Source: a virus | Lineage: Duplodnaviria; Heunggongvirae; Uroviricota; Caudoviricetes | Length of the DNA stretch: 64,000 bases | Virus record (IMG/VR): IMGVR_UViG_3300032030_000012 | Location: 50,756-114,755 of that record | Reading direction: 5' to 3' (one strand) | In this document: piece by piece, positions 10,895-16,132 of the stretch | Layout: each line of letters begins with the position of its first letter | Position numbering within the stretch: position 1 is the first letter of the stretch | Translations under genes and position numbers: made by a program | Notes under the pieces: generated by a model | The model's database searches: none | What the model saw: the letters and a program-made list of their open reading frames with translations, nothing else | Told to the model about the DNA's origin: nothing

Positions 10895-11063
10895 TATTGT
10901 TTAACTCCCTTTCATATATAATATTTTGTTGTAATTGTATTTGTTTTGTCTTTTCTCTTTCAATAGATTCATTAGATCCACATATAACCAAAGTTATCAT
11001 TAAAGCTGCAAAACAAATTACCATTATACACCATTCACTTATCTCAAAATCTCCAAATTGCAT
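10878..11063 (-). CDS. small membrane protein
   Basis: one hydrophobic helix (WCIMVICFAALMITLVICG). Confidence 0.6.
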   Translation of the reverse strand: MQFGDFEISEWCIMVICFAALMITLVICGSNESIEREKTKQIQLQQNIIYERELNNNGTNN

Positions 11064-13090
11064 TAAATTTCCTCCGTAAGCATATCTATTATAGTTGTTT
11101 TATCTAATTTATCTAATGATAAATCATAATCTACCCTATGAATTATTTTCTTATATAATATTTCATCTTGATCTTGATTATTTTTAACAACTACTTCCTG
11201 TAATTCTTCAGTATAAGGTTCATCACTGATTTCGATTAATGAATCTGTCAATAATTGTCTTAATGTTAATTGAGATTCAGAGTACTTATCTAAATAATCA
11301 TATGTTATTTTATTAACATTAGTTCTAGATGTAATTATAGAAGATCCCATATCAAATTTATTGAATATAAATTCTATATTATCTTCATTTACTTTTATTA
11401 AACCTAAAGTAGTTTTATAATTATCATCTGATATATCAAATAAACAAGGTACTGATATCAATACTTTATTTGGATTTATTGTATAATTATTTTCCAATTT
11501 AATATCTTTTTCTGAAGCTAGTATTAATTCGAATGGTATATTTTTACTATTTCTAGTATAATCATTTATAGTTAATAAGAATGAAGTTGGATTACATCTT
11601 TTAGATATTGCAAATAATTCAGTAGCTCCTTTTGGTAATTTAGCATCAGTAACATCTCCTGAAAATACAATATCCCCTGTTTCAGATCTATATCCTGTAT
11701 TCCATCCGAAAGATTGATTCATATTCATTGTATGAATATCTAAATCTATTCTTTCATTATCAAAATTTTTCCAATGAACTCCTACTATCATATCATTTAA
11801 TCTAGGTACTTGTATAGAAGTTCCATATGGTAAATATCCTATATACTGTTTTTCAGATGTAGGAACAGTTATATCTATATAGTTAGGTAAATATACTTTT
11901 TTACCACATAATAATTTATTTATTCTTTTCTTTAAATGACTATATACTAAATCTAAAACTCTGGATTGAACCCATTTTTCTTCTATATTTTTATGTTTTA
12001 AAGTATTCGCATAAGCCTTACCATTTCTAACTTTATATAAAATACTTTCGGTATCTGTTTCTCTATATCTTAAAGAATTTACTATACTTACTTCTCTAAA
12101 TATAGTAGTCTGATCTAAAGCTTTTTCTATACTTTCTTTAGATAATGCTAAAATACTTTCATCTTTTATACTAGTTATATTATCTAATATGCCTTTTCCT
12201 ATAGCTCTATGATATCCTTTTATTCTAGCTAATTTATCTAGTCTATTAATGATTTTATTTATAGATTCAGCATATGAACAACTTCCTTTTTCTCTCTTGA
12301 AAGCTAAGAATAGGTCTTTAAATCTTAAAAAGATTTCAGCAAGACGCTCATATCCATGAGGTTTTCTTATATAGTTATTTAAATAATTATATATTTTATC
12401 AGCATCAGCTTCTTTTATTTTCTTAATTAAATGTTTATTCTTAATTAATAAAGTTTCTCCAGTTGCTTTAAATATTAAATATCTTAGAAACTCAATATTA
12501 CTTTTAGGAACTAGATTATATTTTTCAAACATAGCTATTCTTACTTCTTTATTTGTAATATCATCTACTTGTTCCTGATCAATATAATCTGATAATAGCA
12601 TTATATCTTCTATTGTTTGTTTTGATAGTGCTATTCCAGATGTTAATAATTTCATCATTTTTTCTTTTAATTGATCTTCAGTTATATCTTTAATTACTAT
12701 TAAAGGTATATCTTCTTCTAATTCTGGTATTTCTAATTTTTCATTTGGAATATAAACTAAATTTTCATTATATAAATCTAATGATTCTAATCCATAAGTT
12801 GTAAAATAATGAATTACTTGTTGAGCTATTAATACTTCTATAGGAGTTTCTAATACTGTTTTAAATGATTTATGAAATGTTTGATTCCATTCTTCTGGTT
12901 TTTTACCAAACATTTGAATTGCTAAATCAATTACTTCTTTATCAGCTCCATCTATTCTAGTAAATACTAATCCACTCTTTGCTACATTCTCTTGATTTTC
13001 TTCTATTATATTTGTTGTTGTTACAAATGTTCCATATAAATAAGATTTAAACAATCTTAATAATGCTTCTTTTTGTTTTACTGTTAACAT
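11063..13090 (-). CDS. 675-aa protein: long alpha-helical N-terminal region plus C-terminal TerD-like domain (possible Ro/TROVE-like RNA-binding protein)
   Basis: C-terminal VHW....IDLDIH...FGWN....FSGDVTDA...GATE resembles TerD-type motifs; N-terminal 400 aa helical; own AAGATGTTATA promoter at 13116-13126. Confidence 0.5.
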   Translation of the reverse strand: MLTVKQKEALLRLFKSYLYGTFVTTTNIIEENQENVAKSGLVFTRIDGADKEVIDLAIQMFGKKPEEWNQTFHKSFKTVLETPIEVLIAQQVIHYFTTYGLESLDLYNENLVYIPNEKLEIPELEEDIPLIVIKDITEDQLKEKMMKLLTSGIALSKQTIEDIMLLSDYIDQEQVDDITNKEVRIAMFEKYNLVPKSNIEFLRYLIFKATGETLLIKNKHLIKKIKEADADKIYNYLNNYIRKPHGYERLAEIFLRFKDLFLAFKREKGSCSYAESINKIINRLDKLARIKGYHRAIGKGILDNITSIKDESILALSKESIEKALDQTTIFREVSIVNSLRYRETDTESILYKVRNGKAYANTLKHKNIEEKWVQSRVLDLVYSHLKKRINKLLCGKKVYLPNYIDITVPTSEKQYIGYLPYGTSIQVPRLNDMIVGVHWKNFDNERIDLDIHTMNMNQSFGWNTGYRSETGDIVFSGDVTDAKLPKGATELFAISKRCNPTSFLLTINDYTRNSKNIPFELILASEKDIKLENNYTINPNKVLISVPCLFDISDDNYKTTLGLIKVNEDNIEFIFNKFDMGSSIITSRTNVNKITYDYLDKYSESQLTLRQLLTDSLIEISDEPYTEELQEVVVKNNQDQDEILYKKIIHRVDYDLSLDKLDKTTIIDMLTEEI

Positions 13091-13103: not shown

Positions 13104-13442
13104 CTATTTATTATATATAACATCTTTTAAATCTAAAGAAGTAATAGCTCCTCTCTCATATTTATCTATTAAGTCATTATATATTCTGTCTAAATTTTTC
13201 TTTTCATCAGTTTCATACGCCTTAATTTCATATATTAAAAATAATATCAAATCATCTATCTCTGGTTTTGATAATTGTATGTTATCTAATTTATACAAAG
13301 TAAATTGTTTTAGATAATCATCTATATAATTTTGCATCGTTTGTAATACTTCTCTTCTTTCATTTCTAGGTTTTAAATCTAATTTATTTTTTATAGCTCT
13401 ATATACTAGTTCTTCCATTGTTATCTTTCCTTTCATTTTCAT
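13104..13442 (-). CDS. hypothetical protein
   Basis: ORF between array and TerD-like gene. Confidence 0.65.
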   Translation of the reverse strand: MKMKGKITMEELVYRAIKNKLDLKPRNERREVLQTMQNYIDDYLKQFTLYKLDNIQLSKPEIDDLILFLIYEIKAYETDEKKNLDRIYNDLIDKYERGAITSLDLKDVIYNK

Positions 13443-13533
13443 AATACTCCTTTATTTGTTGATATGTTGCTACATCTCCATCAGGTATTGTATAAAATTT
13501 TTGATCTTCTTCACTATATATTATTTGCATCAT
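13399..13533 (-). CDS. small hypothetical protein (44 aa, not in ORF track)
   Basis: manual translation MMQIIYSEEDQKFYTIPDG... with GAGGT RBS. Confidence 0.5.
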   Translation of the reverse strand: MMQIIYSEEDQKFYTIPDGDVATYQQIKEYYENERKDNNGRTSI

Positions 13534-13708
13534 TTAATACCTCATTAACCTCATTCATTACTCTTTCATATTCTTTATTATTTTCTTCTATTTGTTGTTT
13601 TAAATCATCAATTTTTTCTTGTTGTCTATGTAGATTCATCATTTCAAAACAGAACCACATAAACATTATAAATATTAGTGCTATCATTATTTTCCAAAAT
13701 TTATTCAT
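13514..13708 (-). CDS. small membrane-anchored coiled-coil protein
   Basis: N-terminal hydrophobic helix then coiled coil; GAGGTGG RBS. Confidence 0.65.
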   Translation of the reverse strand: MNKFWKIMIALIFIMFMWFCFEMMNLHRQQEKIDDLKQQIEENNKEYERVMNEVNEVLNDANNI

Positions 13709-13732
13709 TTTACCACCTCATATAAAATTAAA

Positions 13733-13807
13733 AGGGCTGAGATGTAAAAAATATTGCTTAAAAGGCAATCCCTGATAGGATTTTAAAAAGGAACATCTTA
13801 TAGCCCT
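13733..13807 (-). ncRNA. array unit 6: handle plus two small hairpins
   Basis: AGGGCU AUA AGAUGU UCCUU ... UU ACAUCU C AGCCCU. Confidence 0.8.
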
Positions 13808-13818
13808 AATATAATACT

Positions 13819-13948
13819 TAGGAATGGAAAGTAAACATTTTATGCGGCTGCTCTACCAACTGAGCTATATCGCCCGAAGACAATAACAGGACTCGAACCT
13901 GTGACCTGCTGCTTGGCCTAATTTAATAAGGAACTTTCTATATCCCTA
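13819..13948 (-). ncRNA. array unit 5: handle plus circularly permuted tRNA opened in the anticodon loop
   Basis: GCAGC-AGGUC-T arm(ACAGG UUCGAGU CCUGU)-UAUUGUC-UUCG-GGCGAUA-UA-D arm(GCUC AGUUGGUA GAGC)-A-GCCGC. Confidence 0.88.
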
Positions 13949-13966
13949 AAATTAATAACATATAAA

Positions 13967-14045
13967 GAGGCTGAGAAGTAAACTACTTTCAAACCCAATT
14001 TGAATGCGGAATACTCCGCTGATATAAGGAACTTCTTATAGCCTC
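13967..14045 (-). ncRNA. array unit 4: handle plus two small hairpins
   Basis: GAGGCU AUA AGAAGU UCCUU ... GCGGA/UCCGC and UUCAAA/UUUGAA hairpins ... UU ACUUCU C AGCCUC. Confidence 0.8.
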
Positions 14046-14058
14046 AGAAAACAAATCC

Positions 14059-14171
14059 AATAAGCTGAAAACTAATTTAAACTGCCCAATTAAGGACAAT
14101 TCTTGGAGTCGAACCAAGCAGGATCCGAAGATCCATAACCATGTATCATAAGGAAGTTTTTATAGCTTATT
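14059..14171 (-). ncRNA. array unit 3: handle plus permuted tRNA mimic opened between acceptor and D arm
   Basis: D-like hairpin, GGAUC UUCG GAUCC, T arm CUUGG UUCGACU CCAAG, closed acceptor-like stem AUUGUCC/GGGCAGU. Confidence 0.75.
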
Positions 14172-14177
14172 GTCAAA

Positions 14178-14299
14178 GCAAGCTGAAATGTAATAATGGC
14201 TCACTAGATCGGATTCGAACCGATGACTTAGGGTTATGAGCCCTACCCTCTGACCAACTGAGGTACAAGTGAAAAGGATAGGAACATTTTATAGCTTGC
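14178..14299 (-). ncRNA. array unit 2: handle enclosing a complete tRNA
   Basis: GCAAGCU AUA AAAUGU UCCUA ... UU ACAUUU C AGCUUGC. Confidence 0.85.
14197..14272 (-). tRNA. tRNA with CAU anticodon (Met, initiator-like anticodon stem), CCA encoded
   Basis: 76-nt cloverleaf UCACUUG..CCUC/GAGG..UAGGG CU CAU AA CCCUA..AUCGG UUCGAAU CCGAU..CUAGUGA G CCA. Confidence 0.85.
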
Positions 14300-14312
14300 A
14301 GATATATTATAT

Positions 14313-14437
14313 TATAGCTGAAAAGTAATTTTAGGGCCTTAGCCACTTAGGCGATACTATACTTCGTATAGCAGCACGACTCGAACGTGCATCACTGGTT
14401 TTCAAGACCAATTTAAAAGGAACTTTTTATAGCTATA
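14313..14437 (-). ncRNA. array unit 1: handle plus permuted tRNA opened between D arm and anticodon arm (UGA anticodon loop)
   Basis: AUUGGU CUUGAAA ACCAGU, T arm GCACG UUCGAGU CGUGC, closed acceptor UGCUAUAC-GAA-GUAUAGUA, D arm GCCU AAGUGGCUA AGGC. Confidence 0.85.
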
Positions 14438-14455
14438 TATTATATAACAACTTTC
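14437..14455 (-). promoter_or_regulatory. extended -10 promoter driving the RNA array
   Basis: AAAGTTGTTATATAAT immediately 5' of unit 1; same AAGWTGTTATA motif precedes many genes. Confidence 0.6.
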
Positions 14456-14519
14456 TTAATCAATTCTTCTATATCTATAGCTAATAGATACAATATCATA
14501 ATATCTTGCTGCCCCTTCT

Positions 14520-15257
14520 CTATTTTTTAGGAAAACAATCAAGCCATGTATGAGCTGCTTTTACAAATCCACATGTTCGTAATATTCTTATAGCTTTGTA
14601 ATTTTCATTATTAGCAAAATTTCTTCTACTTTCATTTTTATTACCTAATATAGATATAAGTTCTGCATAACAAGTATTTAATATTTCTACATCTTCACAA
14701 TCTAATATTTTTTGTTTTACTTCTTGCTCTCTAGCATATAATTCTTTTGGATTATATTCTTCAGGTAAATCTAATTGTGTAAATAATAACAATTTATTAA
14801 GTAAAGCTCTTATATCATCTATACAAGATTCTATAGTTACAGGCATATTTAGATATTCAGTTGATACTGAAGGATTATCTTTATTCTTAATATAAAAATC
14901 TATTAATTGTTCTGCTTTAACATCAAAATCATGTCCTATCAATCTTTTTAGTTCTTTAAGATGATTACTATAATAAACACACCATCTAGTTATTAATGAT
15001 GAAAAAGCATCTTTATTAACTCCTTTTAAACCAGGTCTATAGACATCTAAAATTCTTTTTACATGAGCATGAGATACTCCATATGCTTTTAATATCAATA
15101 TTTCATTATGGAGTTCTTGTACTACTCTATTATTTTTAGAAGGAGAGGCTATTATATCTTTATATTGCTGTTCTGATGTATAATAGTCTTCATCAAAGAA
15201 CCCTGATACACCTGTTTTAGGATTTATCTCTTTTGAGATAAAATTTTTATATATCAT
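14520..15257 (-). CDS. hypothetical protein
   Basis: 245-aa ORF, translationally coupled to ParB-like gene. Confidence 0.75.
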   Translation of the reverse strand: MIYKNFISKEINPKTGVSGFFDEDYYTSEQQYKDIIASPSKNNRVVQELHNEILILKAYGVSHAHVKRILDVYRPGLKGVNKDAFSSLITRWCVYYSNHLKELKRLIGHDFDVKAEQLIDFYIKNKDNPSVSTEYLNMPVTIESCIDDIRALLNKLLLFTQLDLPEEYNPKELYAREQEVKQKILDCEDVEILNTCYAELISILGNKNESRRNFANNENYKAIRILRTCGFVKAAHTWLDCFPKK

Positions 15258-16132
15258 TATTCTTCTACCTCCTCATCATCTTCTGCTTTATGAAAGTTAG
15301 GACCATATGAAACAAAGTTAGGTGCTAAGTTTTCATCTTTCTTACTTAGATCTTCATATAATCTATTAATGTTACATCTAATTGATCTAGCATTATAGTT
15401 ATATCTAAAATCAATTTCATTAATACAAGTTTCAACGTTAGTCCATTTTTGCATTAAATGTCCTTCTTCTGTTAATATTCTAAATAATTTCTCATTATCT
15501 ACTTCAGGGAATTTATAACAGAATATTATAGAAGTAACTAGATCTGACATATCACTTGATTTAAGTCTAACTTGATTTTCTTTATAATAATCCATTACAG
15601 AAAATACAAATTCTAAACATTCTTTCCCTTTGTTATACATTTCTTCAGTTACATTTAATCTACCGTTTTTAATAGCAGTACCTGGAGCTTTTTTAGTATT
15701 AAATAATACTGTGCACATGTTATTTACTGTAACACATTTTTTACCATGTTCTTCAAACATTTCATTAAATAGTTTTACTATCCATTGATAACTTTCTTTT
15801 CCTGTTTCAGCATAACATTCAATATAATCCATCAAATTCCAAGGTGTTGCATTGATATTCATAACAATACAATCATCAATTTTTAACCCAGGCCTTATAA
15901 TGAAGTTAACAGGAAGTCCTCTTCTTTTACAAGCTTCCAATCTTCCTTGACCATCAATAACTTCAAATTTTTCATTTACTATAATAGGTACAGGAATGTA
16001 ACCTATTTTATCAAAAGATGCTAATATCTTTGATACACGATCTTCTAATACCTTTCTATTTCCTAATACTCTTTTGAATGCATCATAATCTGTTGTTCTA
16101 AACATTTCTTCTGAACTTTTTACATAATTCAT
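15257..16132 (-). CDS. ParB/Srx-like N-terminal domain protein
   Basis: PIIVNEKFEVIDGQGRLEACK motif. Confidence 0.75.
   Translation of the reverse strand: MNYVKSSEEMFRTTDYDAFKRVLGNRKVLEDRVSKILASFDKIGYIPVPIIVNEKFEVIDGQGRLEACKRRGLPVNFIIRPGLKIDDCIVMNINATPWNLMDYIECYAETGKESYQWIVKLFNEMFEEHGKKCVTVNNMCTVLFNTKKAPGTAIKNGRLNVTEEMYNKGKECLEFVFSVMDYYKENQVRLKSSDMSDLVTSIIFCYKFPEVDNEKLFRILTEEGHLMQKWTNVETCINEIDFRYNYNARSIRCNINRLYEDLSKKDENLAPNFVSYGPNFHKAEDDEEVEE

Follow-up and report, generated by a model that had tools for sequence, protein, structure and literature searches.

A family of small structured RNAs in phages and Chryseobacterium, and a possible Ro60/Y-RNA-like particle built on a co-encoded TerD-like protein

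Six RNA units encoded in tandem by a phage are best explained as members of a widespread family of small structured RNAs new to description. The units lie in the window, that is the whole 64,000-nucleotide stretch of phage DNA analysed here, and share a constant structure, the handle, which encloses a variable cargo. Judging from sequence comparisons, the handle most likely serves to dock a helical and TerD-like protein encoded at 11063-13090, and on balance we favour a reading in which the array would specify a Ro60/Y-RNA-like particle made from non-homologous parts, its handles docking this co-encoded protein. We infer that the protein binds the RNA and that the array is processed into unit RNAs, as well as every functional step discussed below. 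The features concerned are the following.

13733-14437, minus strand: handle-RNA array of six units, U1 to U6 (sequence reading, descriptor scan and folds)
14313-14437, minus strand: U1, handle UAUAGCU/AUA/AAAAGU..ACUUUU/C/AGCUAUA (sequence reading and fold)
14178-14299, minus strand: U2, handle GCAAGCU/AUA/AAAUGU..ACAUUU/C/AGCUUGC
14197-14272, minus strand: cargo of U2, an intact CCA-encoding tRNA(CAU), called tRNA-Met(CAU) by ARAGORN
14059-14171, minus strand: U3, handle AAUAAGCU/AUA/AAAACU..AGUUUU/C/AGCUUAUU (fold)
13967-14045, minus strand: U4, handle GAGGCU/AUA/AGAAGU..ACUUCU/C/AGCCUC (fold)
13819-13948, minus strand: U5, handle UAGGGAU/AUA/GAAAGU..ACUUUC/C/AUUCCUA
13733-13807, minus strand: U6, handle AGGGCU/AUA/AGAUGU..ACAUCU/C/AGCCCU
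11063-13090, minus strand: partner protein gene, 675 aa (homology to S-CRM01 g174 and linkage to the handle)

The descriptor scan and the folds agreed exactly with the six minus-strand units and the layout proposed in an earlier note made from the sequence alone. From 5' to 3', each unit comprises an outer stem of 6–8 bp, AUA, a 6-bp inner helix, UCCU, the cargo and UU, followed on the 3' side by the inner helix 3' strand, a single C and the outer 3' strand. As that note had also stated, the inner helices vary in sequence from unit to unit and pair perfectly in all six. The handle closes the minimum-free-energy fold in 6/6 units, which are 75–130 nt long and dissimilar in sequence. When the whole 178,755-bp phage genome was scanned with the descriptor, only six units with the C and UU features were recovered, all of them in the array.

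The modular design, with one handle and interchangeable cargos, was confirmed in the window. The cargo of U2 is the intact tRNA that had been predicted: it scored 66 bits against the Rfam tRNA model RF00005 (14200-14272) and U2 was the only unit to pass the cloverleaf threshold of 29 bits. Three further cargos had been described as opened tRNA mimics, and for two of them the description held, since U1 and U5 generated tRNA calls when re-circularised in silico (mostly tRNA-Ser(UGA) for U1). U1 carries a permuted mimic formed by an anticodon arm (CUUGAAA loop), a T arm, an acceptor stem sealed by GAA and a D arm. U5 carries a YrlA-type permuted mimic with a T arm, a UUCG-sealed acceptor and a D arm, in which the position of the anticodon loop is taken by the handle. 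The third, U3, folds into a weak hairpin, a UUCG-capped hairpin, a T arm recognised by its T-loop motif (CUUGG-UUCGACU-CCAAG) and a closed 8-bp stem; because its re-circularisation yielded no tRNA call, it is partly tRNA-like at most. The two remaining cargos folded into hairpin pairs as expected. That of U4 consists of two hairpins, and that of U6 of a hairpin and a 4-5-bp stem with the 7-nt loop CUUUUAA, a look-alike of the tRNA-Lys(UUU) anticodon arm. U6 orthologues in four other phages keep the CUUUUAA loop on a covarying stem. An ARAGORN 'tRNA-Ser' at 14366-14437, in U1, was discarded as an artefact, the call borrowing a handle strand, and the 'terminators' reported by a terminator scan turned out to be tRNA-like arms. 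The dedicated promoter that had been suggested was not supported, as the promoter scan found 16 promoter-like sites for 12.8 expected, which is not above chance.

To look at the handle outside the window, a covariance model (R1) was built from 52 units of other genomes, with zero window sequence, and searched against 597 kb on both strands at E<=1e-3. It produced 157 matches, and 157/157 were on the strand of the partner protein gene. U6 (33 bits, E 1.4e-6) and U4 (29.2 bits, E 1.6e-5) were recovered in the window; U1, U2, U3 and U5 were missed, even with the filters off, because of the 80-100-nt insertion that these long-cargo units contain, and were located by the descriptor scan instead. 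Among the 140 distinct matches, 95.2% of cells were paired and changes on both sides were seen at 12/12 handle pairs. The covariation score was 0.744, against 0.247 in shuffles (0/500 reached 0.744) and 0.10-0.19 with slid partners. In a search anchored on sequence only, the closing helix was present at 138/259 anchors, compared with 27/1295 in shuffled sequence and 4/207 on the opposite strand. The UCCU and the first bulge A were invariant (140/140 each), the opposed C was found in 134/140, and the middle bulge base was U in 85, A in 37, C in 16 and G in 2. The 3x1 AUA/C loop announced as invariant is thus so within the window, but across the family it becomes A-N-A facing a C that is nearly constant. 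The handle is therefore defined by its outer stem, by the A-N-A bulge with one C facing it, by an inner helix of 6 bp that is purine/pyrimidine in composition and ends with U-A, and by an unpaired UCCU. Its RNA structure is real and under selection.

These data also bear on a DNA-level explanation, in which recombination sites, or the ends of a small mobile cassette (attC-like or MITE-like) with captured tRNA fragments, would account for the inverted repeats. Inverted repeats do flank each cargo, and the cargos are heterogeneous. However, the arms differ among the copies of one genome while complementarity is kept, the asymmetric A-N-A/C loop and the UCCU are one-stranded features with all matches on the strand of the protein, G-U pairs outnumber A-C 3.4x (47 versus 14), and the genome has no copies besides the six of the array. 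This explanation, already disfavoured, is extremely unlikely, and the claim that RNA structure and not a DNA repeat is conserved stands.

In other genomes, the majority of the cargos are short (15-40 nt) non-tRNA loops. Other relatives carry intact and permuted tRNAs, or modules built of T arm, sealed acceptor stem and D arm, and in some of them (L129 3832, L131 2160, L127 3631) a tRNA 3' half with discriminator and CCA is followed by a linker and the 5' half. Since most family members hold short non-tRNA loops, the display of tRNAs, which the earlier note had proposed, cannot be the core function of the handle.

Loci fetched through the partner protein were then inspected for handles. In 128/132 of these loci, 1-7 units adjoin the partner gene on the same strand, many loci having a single unit only. 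The strict descriptor alone found at least one unit in 123/132; in 5 further loci units were detected with the covariance model or had a UAA bulge, and 3 of the 4 unit-less loci have less than 75 nt of upstream sequence. The cultured cyanophage S-CRM01 has five units immediately before its g174 gene. Clustering of neighbouring proteins revealed no second conserved partner, no other family being common to more than 10 of 75 neighbourhoods. The module occurs throughout Chryseobacterium, which accounts for about 57 chromosomes among the loci, and in phages of soil, freshwater, rumen and gut; about 27 of 60 loci have it within a phage tRNA cluster. In 57 Chryseobacterium loci the same strand carries rtcB immediately upstream, then 2-3 handle hairpins and the protein gene; a terminator-like hairpin precedes the handle units. 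A loose pattern scan of viral contigs gave chance matches, with 0 true handles on pairing check among the matches listed, and a stricter scan led to S-CRM01 and a near-identical contig. When the array was compared with cultured phages by blastn, only tRNA-like fragments were obtained, typically the T arm of one tRNA beside the D arm of the next.

The same arrangement would be expected if the hairpins were operators in a 5' UTR, bound by the protein for autoregulation of translation or stability, and not free-standing RNAs. Indeed, in most phage loci the units are on the strand of the gene, with usually 10-100 nt between the end of the last unit and the start codon (12 nt in S-CBWM1, 17 nt in Chryseobacterium). 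Against such a cis-regulatory leader, units are found 3' of the gene in several loci (L142, L147, L174, L191, L224), those of the window are 640 nt and two ORFs away from it, loci may have up to seven units with diversified cargos, and cargos such as complete tRNAs with CCA or sealed tRNA mimics are typical of stable RNAs. We consider the leader unlikely as the whole explanation, although autoregulation and a particle could be compatible. Two observations count against the particle itself: the usual distance of 10-100 nt before the start codon is equally compatible with a cis-acting leader, and in the window array and gene are separated.

The partner gene lies downstream of the array, the two ORFs between them being small. 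Its 675-aa product is a full-length homologue of S-CRM01 g174 (28% identity, E 5e-76) and belongs to a family of uncharacterised proteins, 600-700 residues long, with at least 1,836 homologue clusters at 50% identity; the Chryseobacterium homologue has 584 aa. It comprises an N-terminal helical part (~1-400), a TerD-like beta-sandwich (~427-600) and a small C-terminal beta domain. The modelled fold of residues ~427-600 is TerD-like: VIA-align superposed it on 2qz7_B (Z 9.6, rmsd 3.8, 144 residues) and 2kxt (Z 9.1), Foldseek gave a probability of 1.00 to 2kxt and 3ibz, and AlphaFold DB clusters for the protein carry the name 'TerD family protein'. The family consensus in this region contains, as judged by eye, DLDLH and SGDVTD motifs. 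Pfam TerD gave no match at E<=1. No real family match was obtained in Pfam, PHROGs, NCBIfam or PADLOC, RING_SCO0854 being rejected at 26 bits for a cut-off of 600; a PDB sequence profile search returned nothing, and the named clusters of the ESM Atlas were uninformative. As fold searches with the N-terminal domain found no convincing match (best Z 7.7 over 80 residues), this domain cannot be called Ro60-like; the protein aligned weakly with the Ro60 of Thermus phage phiLo (9l5y_B, Z 5.9, rmsd 5.7, 197 residues). No RNA-binding domain was recognised in the protein, and TerD domains are not known to bind RNA.

In the particle that we favour, one protein would grip a constant RNA stem, leaving the apical part free to vary. 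In large phages this apical slot frequently holds an entire tRNA, a permuted tRNA mimic that is sealed, or a look-alike of an anticodon arm, and the variable module would engage tRNA-recognising enzymes or nucleases, for surveillance or repair of RNA, tRNA in particular. For the phage, the role might be to protect or manage the translation apparatus. More tentatively, and with considerable doubt, such particles could constitute a second class that shares no homology with Ro60/Y RNA and is common among large phages and in some bacteria. Its exchangeable slot for tRNAs, mimics and anticodon-arm look-alikes would then serve as a decoy or sensor for nucleases that target tRNAs, or would hand damaged or precursor tRNAs over to repair of the RtcB type. 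If the particle is real, the libraries of RNA and protein families searched lack a widespread family, and the task of Ro60/Y RNA has a second, independently evolved solution. Unannotated gaps within the tRNA clusters of phages, S-CRM01 among them, would then acquire a function, and 'pseudo', 'split' and 'permuted' tRNA calls in phage genomes would be accounted for. The rtcB link, together with the tRNA and anticodon-arm cargos, may bear on the contest between phage and host over tRNA cleavage and repair. Chryseobacterium, S-CRM01 and S-CBWM1 are culturable systems with the module.

Among known systems, Rfam searches at gathering and E-value thresholds, which covered the window, S-CRM01, Chryseobacterium and eight further loci, yielded nothing beyond tRNA, tmRNA and sub-threshold YrlA, in line with the initial view that the array is no named family, and in the literature searched, where coverage of RtcB-linked systems is incomplete, neither the handle nor its pairing with the protein is described. 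A CRISPR array had been excluded from the start and was so again: the units consist of two complementary half-sites with compensatory changes, not of one repeated sequence, and no Rfam CRISPR repeat matched.

Permuted tRNA genes of Cyanidioschyzon merolae and split archaeal tRNAs, as in Nanoarchaeum equitans, are matured by bulge-helix-bulge processing and RtcB-type ligation. They offer a precedent for a processing and ligation cassette, in which an endonuclease, either the partner protein or one supplied by the host, would recognise the handle and cut at both helix-cargo junctions, and RtcB would join the ends into circular cargos or mature permuted tRNAs. As in these genes, tRNA 3' parts precede 5' parts, with a true permuted-gene layout in L129 3832, L131 2160 and L127 3631, the pairing flanks of the handle juxtapose the unit ends, and rtcB adjoins the module in the Chryseobacterium loci. 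In contrast to them, the handle combines a 3x1 internal loop with a 6-bp helix instead of the two 3-nt bulges and 4-bp helix of a bulge-helix-bulge; if its junctions were cut and the cargo ends ligated, loops of 20-30 nt would result and a 7-nt anticodon loop would not be restored; the acceptor stems in the window (U1 by GAA, U5 by UUCG) are sealed without CCA; and in the majority of the family the cargos hold no tRNA part and nothing to mature. Searches of the window's phage genome did not find RtcB, a CCA-adding enzyme or an Rnl-type ligase (the PF09511 part of the latter search was void, its control giving no match), so that the link to RNA repair comes from Chryseobacterium alone. A cassette of this kind is improbable.

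Type III toxin-antitoxin loci (ToxIN, CptIN, TenpIN) have a tandem RNA array directly upstream of a single protein gene on the same strand, and the handle array, similarly placed, could by analogy be an antitoxin cut and bound by a downstream toxic enzyme. The gene order is that of ToxIN, and in Chryseobacterium the terminator-like hairpin is ahead of it. Yet the handle units are not near-identical direct repeats, structure alone being conserved; the protein is unrelated, ~4x larger and without ToxN/AbiE-type, Pfam, PHROG or PADLOC match; many loci have a single unit; and in Chryseobacterium the locus is not mobile but chromosomally fixed beside rtcB throughout the genus. We regard this pairing as very unlikely. 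The partner protein resembles the TerD family (PDB 2qz7, 2kxt, 3ibz) by its residues ~427-600, but here these residues follow a helical domain of 400 residues with no convincing fold match, and no ter operon is nearby.

The closest comparison is with YrlA/YrlB and Ro60 (Rsr). The partner here is helical and TerD-like, whereas Ro60 is made of TROVE, a ring of HEAT repeats, and vWA; PF05731, the TROVE domain, was absent from the 178.7-kb genome with controls matched, an absence that is not absolute because the genome is 87% complete. The Rsr-binding motif, GNCGAAN0-1G in the closing stem (PMC4201824, Chen et al. 2014), had no copy within 13733-14437 in a pattern search. The handle has invariants of its own (A-N-A bulge, C, U-A, UCCU), and intact tRNAs and plain short loops occur among its cargos as well. 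Against YrlA RF02553, U5 scored 36.1 bits over model positions 24-84 only, where the model is tRNA-like, and S-CRM01 unit V2 scored 35.9 bits over the full model length with the handle at the position of the Ro-binding stem, both about half the gathering score of 69; the other window units gave nothing at E<=10. On the side of likeness, both systems encode several small RNAs one after another next to the gene of one large protein. Each RNA has a closing stem interrupted by an internal loop, and the module that varies frequently mimics a tRNA through a T arm, a sealed acceptor and a D arm, as in U5 and many relatives. The linkage of rtcB to the module in Chryseobacterium recalls Y-RNA operons, the rtcB-hairpins-protein order having the same layout as the Salmonella operon rsr-yrlBA-rtcBA (PMC4201824, PMC7790460). 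Taken together, the presence of one protein family in 128/132 loci and of rtcB in Chryseobacterium make the Y-RNA-like particle, already envisaged in the earlier note, the reading that the sequence evidence favours.

The six units proposed in the earlier note (U1 to U6) were confirmed as written when the minus strand was read across window positions 13500-14700. A descriptor consisting of ATA, six bases and TCCT, followed by a perfect six-base complement, a single base and four or more outer pairs, was used to scan the whole genome of the IMG/VR virus record (178,755 bp, 27% G+C, CheckV 87% complete). U1-U6 were the only units with the C and UU features, nothing comparable being found elsewhere, and ViennaRNA folds closed the handle, the constant double stem that encloses each variable cargo, in every one of them. 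The features of the window are as follows.

11063-13090, minus strand: 675-aa ORF (partner protein), 640 nt downstream of the array
13104-13442, minus strand: small ORF, 112 aa
13514-13708, minus strand: small ORF, 64 aa, with a membrane/coiled-coil look
13733-14437, minus strand: array U1-U6
15257-16132, minus strand: ParB-like protein upstream of the array (PHROG 12305, E 9e-34)
58277-58996, minus strand: three conventional tRNA genes (Glu-UUC, Met-CAU, Thr-UGU), 44 kb away from the array

Neither small ORF is conserved next to the module in other loci, and no handle was detected at the three tRNA genes by covariance model or descriptor.

The cargos had been described as an intact tRNA, three opened tRNA mimics and two hairpin pairs. 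U2 carries a true tRNA(CAU) according to both ARAGORN and Rfam. U1, U3 and U5 were re-circularised in silico by cutting in the sealed acceptor loop and rejoining the ends at the handle junction before ARAGORN was run; U1 (mostly Ser-UGA) and U5 then gave tRNA calls, but U3 gave none among 17,861 re-circularised constructs and is only in part tRNA-like. Otherwise the cargos agree with that description. The ARAGORN call 'tRNA-Ser(tga)' at 14366-14437 (minus strand) was rejected as an artefact, in which the 5' strand of the U1 handle is paired with one side of the sealed acceptor stem.

The same handle was found with a strict two-sided pattern in cyanophage S-CRM01 (HQ615693) and a near-identical contig. 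Five unannotated units follow the S-CRM01 tRNA array, between tRNA-Glu and g174 (L121 2905-3370, record about 132,110-132,570; L numbers denote fetched loci, with local coordinates), and a sixth lies just past g174 (L164 5852-5905). GenBank shows nothing there apart from a 48-aa ORF on the other strand. Directly 3' of the five units, g174 ('conserved hypothetical', 613 aa) is a full-length homologue of the 675-aa ORF (28% identity, E 5e-76). In S-CBWM1 (MG450654), a single unit (L255 1246-1300) ends 12 nt ahead of the homologue gp22. Two 'tRNA-pseudo' features just past gp22 (L255 3512-3688) might be tRNA-like cargos.

Co-occurrence was studied in 52 viral and 80 prokaryote-assembly loci (many of them metagenome bins) chosen via the protein alone. 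With the strict descriptor, 123 of the 132 loci yielded units, 339 in total and 266 of them distinct, and five further loci had units seen with a covariance model or carrying a UAA bulge; three of the four unit-less loci have less than 75 nt of upstream sequence. Units share the strand of the protein gene, the last one usually lying 10-100 nt before its start codon, a position that the rival reading as a cis-acting leader would explain just as well; in a few loci the units lie just past the gene instead. A type III toxin-antitoxin-like pair is another, unlikely rival reading of this association. No second protein family was common to more than 10 of 75 neighbourhoods. tRNA genes lie within 4 kb in about 27 of 60 loci, and at least 12 loci are inside large tRNA clusters, some including a phage-encoded tmRNA gene (L129 625-1048, L139 628-1053, L137 2990-3356).

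A covariance model (R1) was built from alignment A3, which holds 52 short units from other genomes only. In the 64-kb window it recovered U6 at 33 bits, U4 at 29 bits and nothing else; over 597 kb of other loci, both strands included, it gave 157 matches, all on the protein's strand. Among 140 distinct matches, 95.2% of cells are paired and all 12 of 12 handle pairs show two-sided changes (477 of 1,680 cells). Covariation scored 0.744, compared with 0.247 for shuffled alignments (0 of 500 reaching 0.744) and 0.10-0.19 for slid partners, which upholds the claim that RNA structure is conserved. UCCU and the first bulge A are present in 140/140, the closing U-A pair in 139, the second bulge A in 137 and the opposed C in 134. 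The rival reading here, a DNA-level element, is disfavoured: G-U occurs more often than A-C (47 vs 14), which fits an RNA read from the protein's strand. Since the descriptor itself requires pairing, a control was run with anchors picked by sequence alone: a helix closed 138 of 259, against 2% when the downstream sequence was shuffled and 2% for the opposite strand.

Most units carry a cargo of merely 15-50 nt, with a GGA able to pair with UCCU in about 30% of these short-cargo units (11% expected). Long cargos are tRNA-related. Intact CCA-bearing tRNAs have anticodons CAU, GAU and AAU, plus one with an 8-nt anticodon loop (L159 3570-3645, read 'ctat' by ARAGORN), perhaps a suppressor or frameshift tRNA. 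Many mimics run from anticodon arm to T arm, sealed acceptor and D arm, some with discriminator, CCA and linker within the acceptor loop, and in U6 orthologues from five phages the loop CUUUUAA is kept on a covarying stem. The proposal that the units display tRNA decoys is compatible with the anticodon-arm cargos. Since most family members have no tRNA part, decoying cannot be their central function.

A word search returned more than 1,323 relatives of the partner protein, and a full profile search at least 1,836 clusters at 50% identity; no match was found in Pfam, PHROG, NCBIfam or PADLOC. Only S-CRM01, S-CBWM1 and Phass-1 carry it among cultured phages. Homologue-bearing contigs in genome bins of Methanobrevibacter, Woesearchaeota and Nanoarchaeota (L178, L188, L189) are probably mis-binned phage contigs, possibly archaeal viruses. 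AlphaFold models (pLDDT 77 over the full length and 88 for the N-terminal domain alone) predict a helical domain, a TerD-like sandwich and a small C-terminal beta domain. The predicted sandwich aligns with TerD structures (Z 9.6 with 2qz7), and fold searches gave no convincing match to the 400-residue helical domain. A phage Ro60 structure aligned only weakly (Z 5.9), and the protein is therefore not described here as Ro60-like.

The novelty expected in the earlier note held in Rfam 15, where the handle family is not described; neither handle nor pairing was found there or in the literature searched, one relevant paper lying outside that search. Membership of the YrlA/Ro60 family was rejected: the U5 tRNA-like core matches YrlA at 36.1 bits, half the gathering score, a pattern search found no Rsr-binding motif in the array, and no TROVE partner was found in the window's phage genome (87% complete). 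RtcB, Rnl2-type RNA ligase (PF09414) and CCA-adding enzyme were likewise not found in that genome, and the lack of a ligase counts against the rival reading as an endonuclease/ligase cassette. The gene directly upstream of the module in Chryseobacterium is rtcB (Pfam E 1.2e-34), which speaks for that rival as well as for a link to RNA repair:

L222 1153-4596, Chryseobacterium sp. KCF3-3: rtcB, terminator-like hairpin, three handle hairpins, 584-aa helical/TerD gene

The same chromosomal placement of rtcB was observed in 57 Chryseobacterium loci (KCF3-3 and 56 others), and the order mirrors the Salmonella rsr-yrlBA-rtcBA operon (PMC4201824, PMC7790460). Taken as a whole, the analysis favours, with moderate confidence, a particle in which the partner protein would hold the constant handle and leave the apical slot of the RNA free to vary, resembling Ro60 and Y RNA in its working though made of unrelated parts.
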